Of a DNA stretch of 20,000 bases, positions 4,255 to 20,000 are shown in pieces. Source of the DNA: Chiloscyllium plagiosum (Eukaryota); contig NC_057757.1 of NCBI RefSeq assembly GCF_004010195.1, positions 6,216,306-6,236,305 on the forward strand. Direction: 5' to 3'. Numbering within the stretch: position 1 is the stretch's first letter; each line of letters starts with the position of its first letter. The notes below the pieces were generated by a model. That model was not told the origin of the DNA. It worked only from the letters and a program-made list of their open reading frames with translations, and ran no database searches. A program made the position numbers and the translations under genes.

Positions 4255-5539
4255 CAGACGTGCGAGTCATTTGGCCAAAGTGCAATCTTTTCACCTGGAC
4301 AGACAACATATCCTATTTCAAAGCAGCGTCTAATGTAATTTATACCGTTTGACTGTCAGAAAGTGCCTGCAGCCCAACCGTGACTGTATTTGTGCACGTC
4401 ATGAATGTTGAGACTGTTGGATTCAAAGCTGCACCCTTCAACACTATCCCTGTGGGGCTGCAATGAAACCGAGCCCTCTGGTGGTTGGTATATTTGTGCC
4501 TCCACTTTATCAAGGTCTCCATTCAGGCAGCAGCGTTTGTCCATACCTGCACAAATCAGGCTGAAGCCTCTGATCTAAATGGTGCGGAATTCAGTAGCTG
4601 AGGAAATGAAGGAGCTCTGTCATACATTTTTATTCAGGCATTGTATCCAAATGCTTTTCTGCTGCAGTAGTGGAGTTCCGCAGCTAGGAGTCACTGCGTG
4701 CAGCAATTTGGGAGCTGCCAGCAAGACGTGTGTTTTTCATTTTCCCCTCTGCTCAGGCTGACAGCTGTTAATCACCCCCCCAAAAAAATGAAAGCTGCTT
4801 TCAAAGACAGGATTTCCCAAGTGTACGCAACAGTAAACTCATGTAGAAAGATGCAGACAAAGCACGCGTGAGCCCTGCGAAGCAGCTCCTCCCTGAGTGA
4901 GGGATGTGCACTTCTCTGCAAATGCCCCTTTCTTCCCCCCCCCCCCCCTCCCCTGCCAGCCTGCGACGCAATTCTTCGAATGTGTAGTCGGGCGCCTGAA
5001 TTCTCCCCTCCCTCCTGCATATTCCACTTGGAGAATATGGTTTTAACAGCCTGGCCTTATATAATAAACCAAAAAAAAATTGGCCATGTCAGAGAGTTGA
5101 AACAAATAAAAACAGAAATTACTGGAGAATCTCATCACTCTTCTGTCCACCAATCAGCCAACCATTAGGCCGAACCAACTTGTGCCAATCCAGATGGTTC
5201 CTGGTGTGGGTGGCACAGGTGGCTACAGTTGGAAAGCTTTTAAGCTCCCTACAACTTGCCCTAACTTGAATTGTTCACTGTGCTGGTTGGGCTGCTTGAA
5301 GTTTAGGAAGTGTTTTTTTTATTTAGAAAGCTGTAGCCTCAGCGGTGAATGAATTCCCAAATCGGGAATGCCAGGCTCTGTCCAGGGTATCAGAAACAAG
5401 AACAGGAATTTCTGGAGAAACTCAGCAGATCTGGCAGCATCACGACTGTTCAGAAGAAGCTTCAGTGGACTCTCAACTTTAGCTGTGCTTACTCTCTCCA
5501 TAGATGCCAGGTTCAGTACTGGGTCTGCTGCTTTTAATC

Positions 5540-6186
5540 ATTTGTGTAAATGGTTTGGATGTGAACATAGGAGGTATGGTTAGTAAGTTTGCAGACGACA
5601 CCAAAATTGGACAGTGAAGAAGGTTACCTCAGATTACAACAGGATCTTGATCAGATGGGCCGAGGATTGGTTGGTGGAGTCTAATTTAGATAAGCATGAG
5701 GTGTTGCATCTTGATAAGGCAAATCATGGCAGGACTTACACAGTTAATGGTAGGATCTGAACAAAGGGACCTTTGTTCAAAGGTTCATAGTTCCTTGAAA
5801 GTGGAGTTGCAATTAGACAGGGTGGTGAAGGCAGCATTTGACACATTTGCCTTTGTTGGTCAGTGCATTGAGTTTCAGAGTACGGAGGTTAAGTGGTGGC
5901 TATAAACAACATTGGTTAGGCCAATTCTAGAATATCGCAATCAGTTCTGGTCTCCCTGCGATAGGAAAGATGTTAATCTTAAACGGGTTCGGAAAAGATT
6001 TACAAGGCTGTTGCTAGGATTGGAAGTTCTGAGCTATAGGGAGAGATTGATTACACATTGGGCCTGTTTTCCCTTGAGTGTAGGAGGCTGAGGGGTGACC
6101 TTGCAGAGATTTGTAAAATCATGAGGGGGATGGATAGGGTGAATAGCCAAAGTCTTTTTCCCAGGGGAGGGGAGACCAAAAGGGCA
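5540..6186 (+). mobile_element. CR1 LINE ORF2 3' fragment, decayed
   Basis: agtaagtttgcagacgacacc encodes SKFADDT (RT catalytic motif); ORF 6058-6267 contains GLFSLECRRLRGDL, typical of the CR1 C-terminus; many stops and indels. Confidence 0.92.
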
Positions 6187-6371: not shown

Positions 6372-6750
6372 CTGAGGGTGACCCTATAGAGGTTTATAAA
6401 GTCATGAGGGGCATGGATAGGGTAAATAGATAAGGTCTTTTTCCAGGGGTGGGGTAGTCCAGAACTAGAGGGCATAGGTTTAGGATGAGAGGGTAAAGAG
6501 TTAAAAGGAACCTGAAGGACAACTTTTTCACACTGAAGGTGGTGCGTGTATGGAATGAGCTGCCAGAGGAAGTGGTGGAGGCTGGTACAATTACAGCATT
6601 TAAAAGGCATCTCGATGGGTATATGAATAGAAAGAGTTTAGAGGGATGTGGGCCAAGTGCTGGCAAACTGGACTAGATCAGCTCAGGATATTTGGTCGGC
6701 ATGGACGAGTTGAACTGAAGGCTCTGTTTCTGTGCTGTGTGACTCTATGA
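6372..6750 (+). mobile_element. CR1 LINE 3' end including 3'UTR and short tail
   Basis: Encodes remnants of RGDxIEVYK and VVRVWNELP; ends ctgtttctgtgctgtgtgactctatga. Confidence 0.92.
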
Positions 6751-6843
6751 CCTGTTCAGTTTCTCCAGCAATTTCTGTTTTTGTTTCAGGTTTCTAGCAT
6801 TTGCTGTCCTTTGCTCTCTTTTTTGTATATATTGTTCTGCCAG

Positions 6844-9592: not shown

Positions 9593-9720
9593 TTGCAACA
9601 TTTAAGAGGCATTTGGATGGGTATATGAATAGGAAGGGTTTGGAGGGATATGGGCCGNNNNNNNNNNNNNNNNNNNNNNNNNNNCGAAGGGTCTGTTTCC
9701 ATGCTGTACATCTCTATAAC
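9593..9720 (+). mobile_element. Short CR1 3' end inserted antisense in the larger CR1; contains an assembly gap
   Basis: catttaagaggcatttggatgggtatatgaatagg closely matches 6597-6630; ends gtctgtttccatgctgtacatctctat. Confidence 0.85.
9658..9684. other. Assembly gap (27 N)
   Basis: Run of n characters. Confidence 1.
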
Positions 9721-10904
9721 TTTGATTATCTTATACGTCTCAATTAAGTCACCTCTCAAACTCCTTCTCTCCAATGAAAACAGCCTCAGCTCCCTCAGCC
9801 TTTCCTCGTAAGGCCTTCGCTCCATCCAGGCAATCCTAGTAAATTTCCTCTGAACCCTTTCCAAAGCTTCCACATCTTTCCTATAATGCGGTGACCAGAA
9901 CTGCACACAATACTCCAGGTGCAGCCTTCCCAGTGTCATGTACAGCTGAAGCGTGACCTCATGGTTCCGAAACCCAATCCCCCTACCCCATAAACGCCAA
10001 CACACCATATGCCTTCTGAACAACCCTATCAACCTGGCTGGCAACTTTCAGGGATTTATGCACCTGGACACAAATCTCTGTTCATCTACACTATCAAGAA
10101 TTTTACCATTAGCCGAGTTCTCTGCATTCCCGTTACTTCTTCTGAAGTGAATCACCTCACACTTTTCCCATATTAAACTCCATTTGCCACTTCTCAGCCC
10201 AGCTCTATGTCCCTATGTAACCTAAAACATCCTTCGGCACTATCCACAATTCTGTCTACCATGGTGTCATCTGCAAATTTACTAACCCATCCTTCCATGC
10301 CCATATCCGGATCATTAATAAAAAATGACAAACAGTGGTGCCCCAAAACAGATCCTTGCGGCACACTACTGGTAACTGAATTCCAGGATGAATATTTCCC
10401 ATCAACCACCACCCTCTGTCTTCTTTCAGCTAGCCAACTTCTGATCCAAACCGCTAAATCACCTTCAATTCTGAAACTCTGTATTTTGTGCAATAGCCTA
10501 CCGTGTGGAACCTTATCAAACGCCTTACTGAAGGTCATATACACCACATCAACCACTTTACCTTCACCCACCTGTTTTATCACTTTGTCTAAAGAACTCA
10601 AAGGTTAGTGAGGCACGACCTACCCTTCACAAAACCATGTTGGTTATCCCTAATCAAATTATTCCTTTCCAGATGATTATAAATCCTGTCTCTTATAACC
10701 TTTTCCAACACCTTACCTACAATCGAAGTAAGGCTCACTGGCCTATAATTGCCAGGGTTGTCCTGACTCTCCTTAAACAAGGGAACAACACTTGCAGTCC
10801 TCCAGTCTTCTGGCATTACTCCTGTTGACAATGATGCCATCAAAAAAAATCAAAGCCAAAGGCCCTGCAATCTCCTCCTTGGCTTCCCAGAGAATCAGAG
10901 GATA

Positions 10905-12845: not shown

Positions 12846-13190
12846 GGTAAGAGTTCTACAGCTTCTAGAATCTGAGGTTTAAAAATCACCTACTGCCAAT
12901 GATAATCTCACCATCTAATCTATCATTTTGAGTGTTAATTTAAAATTCTCTTGCTCATTGGTTCTGGGTCCATCCAGGAAAGGCATGAGAAAACATGCAG
13001 TTAACTTTCACGTGTTTATGTTAAATGTCGGACTTGCCCAAAAATACTTGATTCATGAAACTTGTAAATGTACATTCAAAGCATTTTACAGGAAATGCAA
13101 TACAATTCAACTTCTCTCCATTCAGTATCTTGGGTGCATTGAAGAGAATTTGCAGTATTCAGTGCAGACTGATGCTCAGACCAGTGGTAC

Positions 13191-13364
13191 TTAGAGTCAT
13201 AGAGATGTACAGCATAGAAACAAACCCTTCAGTCCAACTCATCCCTGCCGATCAGATATCCTAAATTAATCTATTTCCATTTACCAGCATTTGGTTCATA
13301 TCCCTCTGAACCCTTCATTTTCGTGTACCCATCCAAATGCCTTTTAAGTGTTGTAATTGTACCT
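13191..13364 (-). mobile_element. CR1 LINE 3' end fragment
   Basis: tagagtcatagagatgtacagcatagaaaca... is the reverse complement of the CR1 3' terminus seen at ~6720-6750 and ~9690-9717. Confidence 0.9.
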
Positions 13365-14099
13365 TTTACCACTGGGACTCCTTTTCAAGGCCAGAGAATT
13401 GATCCGACCCCTCAGTGAGAACTTTCACACTCGGTCAAAGTTCACAATGGCCGTTGTTACCTCAGACCCTGAAATATCGGGTCACGACCTCACTGGGGGT
13501 CCTGAAGCCAACTTTGGGAAGCCCTGGCTCAAACTGTGGAGGTTGCTGGCGAGCGCCAATGACTTTGTCAACAGCGTAGTCACTTGGGTAATGTGTAAGG
13601 CACTGGATCAAACTGGGAGAGGGGGCGTCCTGCCGTAAAAGGGGTCCGGGTTCGAGATTTTTGGTTGCAAACTCTTGAGGCTGCAATGCGCTATGGGCAG
13701 CTCCGAATGAGTGCTCAGCTCCGAGACCACTTTAACTACTTTTTCCCAAACTGTGAGTGGGAACTAAATGACTCAACCTTAGGGCCTGGATCCTGCAGCA
13801 CCAACAATAGTAATCCTCGCATGTTTTTGAAAAGTGATCACTCCTCTCACAAGGCTTTGTGTTTCTCTCGCTGTGTTCTTCGAGATGTACTCCCCCAGCT
13901 ACCTACTCTTTCAGTTCTGTCCCACCCTCTCCCCCGTCCTGACAATTCTCATTGACGGATCATGCTTGAAATCAAGTCCTGGGAAAGACTTCGGAGCCCC
14001 TGGATTGGATCGAGAAGACGTATGATTGGTTTAAATGTATCCAGAGACACTATGCAAATCACACCTATTGTTTGGGGCTAGTAGGTTTGAAGGGATGGT

Positions 14100-14316
14100 T
14101 GAAACTTTATTGCTGGAACAGCACAGCAGGTCAGGCAGCATTCAGGGAACAGGAGATTCGACGTTTCGGGCACAGGCCCTTCTTCAGGTTCCTGAAGAAG
14201 GGCCTGTGTCCGAAACGTCGAATCTCCTGTTCCCTGGATGCTGCCTGACCTGCTGTGCTGTTCCAGCAATAAAGTTTCAACTTTGATCTCCAGCATCTGC
14301 AGACCTCACTTTCTCC
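14100..14316 (+). mobile_element. Young palindromic Penelope-like non-autonomous element with 13-bp TSD
   Basis: Arms 14099-14188 and 14191-14280 (90 bp, 2 mismatches, 2-nt loop), unpaired 3' tail to 14316; exact TSD TTGAAGGGATGGT at 14087-14099 and 14317-14329. Confidence 0.85.
14186..14225 (+). ncRNA. Minimal type I hammerhead ribozyme motif
   Basis: aggttc-CTGAAGA-A-gggc(ctgt)gtcc-GAAA-cGTC-gaatct: intact core, stem II, stem I aggttc/gaatct, loopless palindromic ACGT stem III; predicted cleavage after C14219. A mirror core lies on the minus strand. Confidence 0.7.
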
Positions 14317-14534
14317 TTGAAGGGATGGTATAAGTCTTATCAACATTAACTCTTTGGTGTCACTGTGGACAAATATATTAACTCACTGAGTTGGGTAGTA
14401 ATGAGTTTAAATGGTAAATGGAGATGCAAAGTTTTACTGCAGGTTGAAGTCATACCCAGCACGTAGGAATGTGGTTGTGGTTGTTGGAGGTCAGTCATCT
14501 CCGCTCCAGGACATCTCTGCAGGAGATCTTCAGG

Positions 14535-14769
14535 TAGAAATTTTCCTTACTATCCTATTCAGAGACGTTAAACACCCCTAGAATAAGTGGCACTTGAACC
14601 CAGGCCTCCTGGCTCAGAGATAGGGATAATACCAGTGTGTCACAAGTACTTGACTGCCTCAGGATAGTATTTCCTAATCAACCATTCCAGAGATTTTATT
14701 GCGCACCTCTGGAGCATGTGGGATTTGAACCCAGGCCGCTTGGCTCACTACCACTGTGCCTCAAGAACT
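14535..14769 (-). mobile_element. Tandem pair of the short tRNA-derived element (14535-14650, 14664-14769)
   Basis: Both units contain ttgaacccaggcc (B box, reverse complement) and match 12708-12827; separated and flanked by GGAGTTCCTCAGG-like 13-mers. Confidence 0.75.
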
Positions 14770-14813
14770 GGAGTTCATCAGGATCATGTCCTAGGCTCAA
14801 CTACATTCAGTTG

Positions 14814-17485: not shown

Positions 17486-18100
17486 TAAGACTTCGGAGTG
17501 GAAGCAAGGCCATTCGGTCCATCGAGTCCACTCCACCATTTACAGTAATCATGGCTGATGGACATTTCAATTCCACTTACTCGCCCTCTCACCGTAGCCC
17601 TTAATTCCTTGCAAGATCATGAATTTATCGATCTCTGCCTTGAAGATACCTAATTTCCCAGCCTCCACTGCACTCCGTGGCAATGAATTCCACAGGCCTA
17701 CTGCTGTCTGGCTGAAGGAATGTCTCCTCATCTCCGTTCTAAATTGACCCCCTCTAATTTTAAGGCTATGCTCACGGATCCTACTCTCCCTGCCCAACAG
17801 AAACAACTTCCCAGCGTCCACCCTTTCTAAGCCATGCGATATCTTGTAAGAGTGGTACTTAGAGTCATAGAGATGTACAGCATAGAAACAAAGGCTATGC
17901 TCACGGATCCTACTCTCCCTGCCCAACAGAAACAACTTCCCAGCGTCCACCCTTTCTAAGCCATGCGATATCTTGTAAGTTTCTAATAGATCTTCCCTTA
18001 ACCTTCTAAACTCTAATGAATACAATCCCAGGATCCTCAGCCAACATCATATGTTAGGTCTACCATTCCAGGGATCCATCTGTGCGAATCTCCGCTGACA
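17486..18100 (-). mobile_element. CR1 LINE 3' fragment with internal duplication
   Basis: ORF 17567-18025 YSLEFRRLREDLLETYK...RRHSFSQTAVGLWNSLP. Confidence 0.92.
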
Positions 18101-18108
18101 TGCAAAGA

Positions 18109-18163
18109 GACCCACAGCCTGTGGTTTACAAGACCAGTGCTCTAACTACTGAGCTATGGGACC
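18109..18163 (-). pseudogene. tRNA-Thr(TGT)-derived fragment, 3'-truncated
   Basis: Minus strand ggtcccatagctcagtagttagagcactggtctTGTaaaccacaggctgtgggtc: D arm gctc/gagc, anticodon TGT at 18128-18130; closely resembles vertebrate tRNA-Thr(UGU) as recalled; T arm and 3' acceptor strand missing. Confidence 0.8.
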
Positions 18164-18834: not shown

Positions 18835-19660
18835 GGGATAAAAATAAGGAGGTCTCACTACAAACATACAATGCTAAAAATCACACAACACCAGGTTATA
18901 GTCCAACATGTTTATTATATACAAGACAGTAGTTAGGCCACAGCTGGAATTCTGTGAACAGTTTTAGTCCTATTATCTAAGGAATGACATCCTGGCTTTG
19001 AAGTCTAGATTAGAGTGGTGCTAGAAAAGCACAGCAGGTCAGCCAGCATACGAGGAGCAGGAAAATCGACGTTTCGGGCAAATGTCCTTCATCAGGAATG
19101 GAGATTGCTCCATCAGGAATTGCTCCATTCCTGATGAAGGGCTTTTGCCCGAAACTTCGATTTTCCTGCTCCTCGGATGCTGCCTGACCTGCTGTGCTTT
19201 TCCAGCATCACTCTTATCTAGACTCTGCCTTCCAGCATCTGCAGTCCTCACTTTTGCCTCTCCTGGCATTGGAGGCAGTCCAGAGAAGGGTCACTAGACT
19301 GATCCTGGAAATGGAGGGACTGCCTTATCAGGAGAAATTGAGGCTGTACTCATTGGAGTTTAGATGAATGAGAGGCGACCTTATTAAAACATGTAATTTT
19401 CTTAGGGAATATGACAGGGTAGATGTGGAGACCTTTGGAAGAGTCTATGACCAGGGAGCATCATCTCTGAACAAGGGACTGTCCAGGAGGAGAAAGTGAG
19501 GTCCAGCAAAGGGACTGTCCAGTTAAGGATTTCTATCTCTCAGAAAGCAGTGAATTTGTGGAATTCTTCAATGCAGAGGGCAGTAGAGGTCTTTAGTTGG
19601 CTTGTGGGTGATCAGATCTCATCCAATGGAGGAGTGGTCAATGGGCTGAATGGCCTCAGA
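18835..19660 (+). mobile_element. Old CR1 LINE 3' fragment hosting three small insertions
   Basis: gttaggccacagctggaattctgtgaacag (VRPQLEFC), ctgtactcattggagtttagatgaatgagaggcgacctt, 3' end atgggctgaatggcct. Confidence 0.85.
19002..19260 (+). mobile_element. Palindromic Penelope-like element with hammerhead cores, related to 14100-14316
   Basis: Arms 19002-19103 and 19123-19224; + core CTGATGA-A-gggc(tttt)gccc-GAAA-cttc (19131-19158); tail ccagcatctgcagtcctcactttt; degenerate TSD tcctggctttgaag (18990-19003) / tcctggcattggag (19261-19274). Confidence 0.85.
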
Positions 19661-19675
19661 CTAAGGGCTGGTCTT

Positions 19676-20000
19676 ATAGGGGAGGCGGAGTTGAGAGAAG
19701 GGCGTGAATGACATTGAAGGGGCGGGGCCAACGCTCATGGGCGGGATTAGTCACTGCGGTGGGCGGGCAAAGGACGAAGTGGTTGGGACGCGCTGCCTGG
19801 GGGCGGCGTCAGGATGGAAGGGGCGGGGTCAGCGCGGGGCATAAGCTGCGAGGGGGCGAGACTGACGTAAAAGAGGGGGCGGGGCCAGAATCGAGGAGGG
19901 CGGGGCATAAACAGTGCGGGGCGCGCGGCTGACGTGGAGGGGGCGGGGCATAAGCGGCGAGGGTGCAAGACAGACGTGTGAGTGGGCGGGGCTAGCGGCG
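19676..20000. promoter_or_regulatory. CpG island edge with clustered Sp/KLF GC boxes and CRE-like sites; probable promoter
   Basis: Abrupt rise in GC and CpG; GGGCGGGG boxes near 19719, 19820, 19876, 19898, 19940, 19984; TGACGT at 19863 and 19930. Confidence 0.75.

Follow-up and report, generated by a model that had tools for sequence, protein, structure and literature searches.

Penelope-like elements (PLEs) have been described as inserting with a 5'-truncated copy in inverted orientation at their 5' end, a tail of 30–40 nt at one end only and a target-site duplication (TSD) (PMC3846280, PMC8557442, PMC8969392, PMC2377424). Their pLTRs carry minimal hammerhead ribozymes (min-HHRs), mostly as single motifs from truncated elements, which are weakly active as dimers, and in Schistosoma pairs of min-HHRs were reported on opposite strands, 100–700 bp apart (PMC4209133). 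For the Poseidon element of Anolis carolinensis, the PAc protein was reported to cut and to extend both target strands. Its reverse transcriptase (RT) initiates at two internal sites of the RNA, between which the tail lies, the template being uncut RNA, and the hammerhead needs the protein in order to cut and is dispensable for insertion (PMC11167929). Non-LTR retrozymes, which are kin to PLE pLTRs, are described as head-to-tail tandem units that release circles (bioRxiv 10.64898/2026.07.22.740005).

We analyzed a palindromic insert in a window of 20,000 nt (the whole stretch of Chiloscyllium plagiosum DNA under study), which consists of repeat-rich non-coding DNA of vertebrate type with SINE-like and LINE-like repeats. 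The features of the insert, and of a second copy in the same window, are as follows.

14087 to 14099, no strand: left TSD, 13 nt
14100 to 14188, minus strand: inverted arm, the reverse complement of 14191–14279 without the tail, with a private C-to-T change at 14142
14160 to 14187, minus strand: minimal hammerhead core (C3 at 14187, C17 at 14160), stem II perfect, stem I broken
14186 to 14225, plus strand: minimal type I hammerhead, predicted cut after C14219
14189 to 14190, no strand: centre junction TT, site of the family 5' boundary
14189 to 14281, plus strand: direct arm, the putative end module (pLTR) of a family of PLE type, from a minority subfamily, with a private C-to-T change at 14209
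14282 to 14316, plus strand: unpaired tail of 35–37 nt without poly(A), with a sharp family 3' end at 14316/14317
14317 to 14329, no strand: right TSD, where the apparent empty-site contigs of organisms B and C start
18990 to 19274 (element 19003–19260), plus strand: older, second palindrome from a sister subfamily, 4.9 kb away and with a TSD

A sequence-only reading of this DNA had described a 217-bp palindrome with a 2-nt centre and two arm mismatches, flanked by an exact 13-bp TSD, and this description was confirmed. Positions 14087–14099 are identical to 14317–14329, for which the computed chance probability is about 2e-5 when 1,200 position pairs are allowed. The lengths given for the parts needed a slight correction: the arms, described as 90 nt long, measure 89 nt inside the element and 91 nt with TSD bases included (14098–14188 paired with 14191–14281), and the tail, described as 36 nt long, measures 35 nt (14282–14316) or 37 nt (14280–14316), depending on where the arm is taken to end. 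The last 2 nt of the left TSD also pair with 14280–14281, forming a microhomology at the left junction. Each of the two mismatches (14142 T:G 14237 and 14170 G:T 14209) is a C-to-T transition on the plus strand. Their common G-U compatibility had been pointed out in that reading; for any two transitions within a palindrome, however, chance alone makes both compatible on a chosen strand with a frequency of 0.25, and the compatibility is therefore no sign of selection on RNA structure. The unit is reduced to 217 nt and is without any ORF, and its whole plus strand folds to a single hairpin (MFE −201.5 kcal/mol, z −24).

Both arms carry a min-HHR motif with a CUGANGA/GAAA/NUH core, an extra base after A9, a G10.1–C11.1 pair and a palindromic, loopless helix III. 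On the plus strand, C3 lies at 14192 and CUGAAGA at 14192–14198, followed by the extra A at 14199, GAAA and C17 at 14219; stem II pairs 14200–14203 with 14208–14211 (4 bp: GC, GC, GU, CG), helix III is a loopless ACGU at 14215–14218 and stem I pairs 14186–14191 with 14220–14225 (6 bp). Because the outer three pairs of stem I use the left-arm bases 14186–14188, its length of 6 bp is partly an accident of the junction. The minus-strand hammerhead has the same core and an entirely Watson-Crick stem II, and two A-A mismatches beside the first pair break its stem I; the motifs were thus found as first described, including the poor stem I of the minus strand. A descriptor of the loopless minimal hammerhead, composed after the motif had been seen, matched the window twice, once per arm, against 0.005 matches per 20 kb in 200 Markov-1 resamples. 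In Rfam, no hammerhead family matched the window at E ≤ 1. Six of the seven Rfam matches in the window at this threshold were microRNA models on the two hairpins, all under the gathering score.

In ensemble folding of read-through RNA, stem II had a probability of 0 and the hairpin won completely. The RNA 14180–14316, put forward earlier as a substrate for self-cleavage, would bury the motif as well, since its catalytic core pairs with left-arm bases and is unpaired with a probability of at most 0.03. When the RNA starts at 14186, stems I and II are present in the MFE structure, but their ensemble probability is only about 0.05. A double-hammerhead dimer joined through ACGU reached −15.5 kcal/mol, compared with −8.3 kcal/mol per monomer (2 × −8.3). 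The variants listed among family members fell in loop II (14204, 14206), at 14209 and on the 3' side of stem I (14222, 14224), and none of those listed lay in the core. At 14209, C, which restores a G-C pair, was found in 574 of 594 RNA reads and in 84–92% of contig depth. The second copy has another base at N7, and the variants listed included no change on both sides of stem II. The hammerhead is probably a motif inherited from the family, and the copy at this locus, predicted to be buried in the ~90-bp hairpin of any read-through RNA, most likely does nothing.

The second copy has arms of 102 nt (19002–19103 and 19123–19224) with 8 mismatches, and both of its hammerheads are damaged. Its degenerate TSD (14 nt, 12 of 14 matching) reached a score that was equaled in 2 of 150 random flank pairs. 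Relative to the tail, the left end falls in the register seen in the first copy, the 2-nt overlap of arm and TSD is common to both, and in each of these two full copies of the window an inverted 5'-truncated copy adjoins the 5' end. The centre of the second copy is different and longer, with short internal duplications that look templated.

Several other features of the window were recorded. Decayed remnants related to the module, a short inverted arm with a deleted direct arm along with a tail-bearing 3' piece, lie at 5395–5545 and 6748–6820, and a TSD was looked for around them and none was found. Positions 335–420 hold the hammerhead-like start of a sequence-unrelated family, with a CUGAUGA core and a possible 5-bp stem I; the GAAA/helix III part is decayed and no TSD was found when sought. 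An exact 89-nt direct repeat (17762–17850 and 17891–17979) is spaced by 129 nt, and the 42-nt piece between its copies (17851–17892) is identical to 13183–13224, representing either a small, very recent insertion accompanied by a long duplication or an artefact of the assembly. A truncated tRNA-like match exceeding the Rfam gathering score (18107–18163, minus strand) is likely the head of a tRNA-derived SINE or a pseudogene, and the G+C-rich stretch 19600–20000 (CpG observed/expected 0.97, against 0.33 for the window), with repeated GC-box- and CRE-like words, is possibly the edge of a CpG-island promoter. An assembly gap of 27 N (9658–9684) lies within a LINE-like stretch.

The abundance and the boundaries of the family were analyzed by aligning four runs (X2, X9, and X13, DNA contigs, and X21, RNA) at 85% likeness to 14171–14770, which covers the right arm, the tail, the right flank and 18 nt of the left arm. 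The module was extremely abundant in all three species (A, B, and C), the summed depth being no copy number. In four of the four runs, a sharp family 3' end was followed by unrelated letters: loose ends behind 14316/14317 numbered 246 + 859 in X2, 792 in X9 and 297 + 886 in X13, and the letters that follow agreed by only 0.33–0.35, which indicates neither poly(A) nor a common continuation. As most loose ends stop behind 14317, T14317 probably belongs to both the family and the TSD. At the other end, depth dropped 13- to 24-fold across 14190 in all four runs, partly as an edge effect that local alignment shows where the aligned stretch begins, and 5' loose ends with mixed letters before 14189 were listed for two of the four runs (308 RNA reads in X21 and 68 contigs in X2). 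The family 5' boundary coincides with the front edge of the hammerhead and precedes the predicted cut by 30 nt.

Depth at 14188 was only 0.9–1.9% of that at 14204 in the three DNA runs, and 5 reads against 576 in the RNA run. In addition, 58–73% of this depth showed A, against the G of this copy, with up to 42% non-A in X2. The idea of the palindrome as a mobile unit in its own right is not supported by these data, less than 2/100 of the depth at 14204 reaching 14188, mostly with A and not G, and by the other centre of the second copy. The two arms of the insert bear identical minority-subfamily letters. The predicted cut site lies inside both of them, so the template was uncut, like that of PAc in vitro.

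A right flank free of the element was apparently found in both of the two other species. The contig of organism C (962 nt) aligns from 14317 to 14498 with 6 of 182 letters different and continues upstream with 779 unlike letters, and that of organism B (917 nt) aligns from 14317 to 14493 with 7 of 177 letters different and has 739 unlike letters upstream; each flank alignment also shows one gap. The upstream letters do not fit the tail and by length would end at 13348 (B) and 13308 (C), within the repeat 13196–13363, where such contigs should break. Judged from the alignment of the right flank and the upstream lengths, these contigs appear to represent the empty site in two of two other species. 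Since the two related species appear to have an empty site, the insertion would be young, in support of the earlier proposal, and the 2 differences among 91 arm positions fit an insertion after a species split of 3–4%.

In total, 12,955,460 RNA reads, about 2/100 of one poly(A) single-cell library, were examined, and 2,562 of them aligned, nearly all on the module. These reads come from other copies, because 97 of 100 run on into unlike letters. RNA depth in this part of the library was 0 on the unique flank 14331–14430, so that expression of the locus found no support, and no pile-up of read ends was seen at 14219/14220 in this library, which is unsuited to show cut ends. A-to-I editing was considered and found no support, since the A>G and T>C changes among the variants listed for the RNA run are also present in the DNA runs. 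Behind 14315, a group of 175 X21 reads runs on into a common sequence (agreement 0.87) that contains an AATAAA word; these reads probably stem from another copy near the 3' end of a well-expressed transcript.

Taken as a whole, the insert is probably a dead-on-arrival insertion unit of an endonuclease-bearing (EN+) PLE, whose mirror arm was built during insertion. Its assignment to the PLEs is based on structure, four of five features having been found, and the Penelope-type origin proposed earlier is supported by the architecture reported in PMC3846280, PMC8557442, and PMC11167929. Like the EN+ PLE insertion units (Penelope/Poseidon and Neptune) described in PMC3846280 and PMC8557442, it has a head-to-head inverted 5'-truncated copy, a 30–40-nt tail at one end and a TSD, although the TSD measures 8–10 nt in the rotifer cases of these reports and 13 nt here. 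The motif also agrees with the dimer-type PLE min-HHRs of PMC4209133, as the sequence-only reading had suggested: both are type I, with no helix III, palindromic positions 15.2–16.2, an extra base after A9 and G10.1–C11.1. However, stem II has 4 bp here and 7–8 bp in the Schistosoma min-HHRs, and the two motifs abut, with cores 4 nt apart, whereas the Schistosoma pairs are 100–700 bp apart (PMC4209133).

By eye, the PAc template shows the same extra base and loopless ACGU (PMC11167929). The tail ends 97–98 nt after the predicted cut here, in rough agreement with the RT start 82–89 nt after the cut in PAc. In contrast, the PAc ORF starts inside the hammerhead, while the equivalent frame here stops after 19 codons, and PAc favours AT-rich targets, while the TSD here has a G+C content of 6/13 (PMC11167929). 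Non-LTR retrozymes are likewise non-coding, with a type I hammerhead, and were found in the sole chondrichthyan sampled in that report; this assignment was rejected, as the insert is one head-to-head pair with no tandem and cannot release circles (bioRxiv 10.64898/2026.07.22.740005).

Searches for relatives were carried out at several levels. An autonomous partner with RT and GIY-YIG domains, for which the sequence-only reading had suggested a search, was not found in linkage with the family: the 30 of 61 window ORFs scanned against Pfam gave two RVT_1 fragments, at 10194–10849 on the minus strand, and no GIY-YIG domain. The 40-residue open frame 14196–14315 gave no candidate homologue among longer proteins, which is weak evidence. 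Copies of the module in viral contigs numbered 0 in a pattern scan, and 81 loci matched by pattern in metagenome contigs were all taken as chance, the longest BLAST match to the window copies being 38 nt. We found no literature naming this shark family, which may well be catalogued in Repbase/Dfam. The insert is a very common, already described kind of leftover and no new system.

We propose the following route of insertion. Only the PLE end module would have been copied, that is the last ~128 nt from the minimal hammerhead to the tail end, together with an inverted tail-less copy. A PLE RT/GIY-YIG protein, presumably acting on a short or truncated template, would nick the two target strands about 13 nt apart, as the TSD suggests. 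The 3' end of the bottom strand may then prime cDNA synthesis at the tail end of uncut element RNA, where the family 3' end is observed, and the second arm would be made in the same event, likeliest by priming from the 3' end of the top strand at a second RNA site ~35 nt upstream. Both cDNAs would halt at the observed boundary, the front edge of the hammerhead, either at an RNA start or at an RT stop, and would then be joined end to end at TT.

Two-site priming of the mirror arm, to which we give about even chances, is favoured because the anole PLE has been shown in vitro to extend both strands and to use two start sites that flank the tail (PMC11167929). A PLE origin could also be combined with a single cDNA, which would run to the template's 5' end, fold back and copy itself, the endonuclease trimming it ~35 nt short of the tail end before joining to the target. 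This variant, whose probability forms part of that given above to the PLE insertion unit, yields the same final structure; self-priming has been proposed for head-to-head PLE junctions (PMC3846280) and resolution by the endonuclease for the tail (PMC8557442). The identical minority-subfamily letters of the arms, as one cDNA would give, fit either route and slightly favour one template. Nevertheless, the usual family letter at 14188 is A, which provides no ready-made hairpin at the cDNA end, and in vitro the anole protein starts at internal RNA sites when it extends the two target strands (PMC11167929), so that we regard the fold-back as possible and the less probable of the two routes. We also consider, as a long shot, that the ACGU palindrome of the hammerhead is a clasp that pairs two short RNAs and presents two templates to a dimeric PLE protein, one being primed per nicked strand. 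On this speculative account, the RNA copied would be a short species starting at the front edge of the hammerhead, which would be less a cutter than a clasp. If true, it would account for stubs terminating at the hammerhead, for boundaries that never coincide with the cut site and for the high frequency of head-to-head stubs.

Outside this insertion-unit explanation, and in line with the sequence-only reading, the palindrome, or a hammerhead-headed unit of ~130 nt, could form a non-autonomous family with its own master RNA, served by a PLE protein in trans and comparable to a solo retrozyme. The very high abundance and the sharp boundaries at either end would suit such a family, the 5' boundary would follow from a short master RNA that begins at the hammerhead, and non-autonomous PLE derivatives are known, namely Chlamys (PMC8557442) and the non-LTR retrozymes (bioRxiv 10.64898/2026.07.22.740005). 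We nevertheless find it rather unlikely, as the centre of this copy is not the family norm and differs from that of the second copy, from a palindromic master one would expect left ends that vary or 5' flank that is carried along, whereas both copies end in the same register, and the tandem array given as the defining trait of non-LTR retrozymes (bioRxiv 10.64898/2026.07.22.740005) is absent. The different centres could also mean different masters, because the two full palindromic copies read come from different subfamilies. The earlier proposal of two mutually exclusive folds, here in the form of a working host RNA switch between hairpin and self-cleaving hammerhead, would draw on the intact core of both arms and on stems I and II in the MFE of RNA from 14186. 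With the hammerhead fold at ~0.05 in the ensemble of that RNA and 0 in read-through RNA, a dimer at −15.5 against −201.5 kcal/mol for the hairpin, an insertion apparently absent in two related species, a silent unique flank and no end pile-up in the one poly(A) single-cell library, not built for cut ends, it appears very improbable. We give even less credit to a MITE, that is a remnant of a DNA transposon, for which the long inverted arms, the TSD and the high copy number would speak. The inverted repeats are not terminal, since in both copies a tail of 35–37 nt extends beyond the right arm; solo copies with a single arm occur, as seen from the loose ends at 14189; the TSDs of 13 and ~14 nt are not of a fixed short length; and a hammerhead motif is present. 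The warning of the sequence-only reading that the insert is no MITE is supported by the tail, the solo arms and the TSD lengths.

Two points are new here: two relatives apparently retain the empty site, and the 14180–14316 test RNA is flawed. The finding also points to an annotation hazard, since the hairpin attracts weak matches to microRNA precursors in Rfam and resembles a MITE. The locus is ordinary, but the specimen is clean: it is young, both of its junctions are readable, and apparent empty sites are available in two relatives. Thousands of such stubs in one genome constitute a natural data set on the way in which PLEs construct inverted arms and on the reason why copying halts at the hammerhead.
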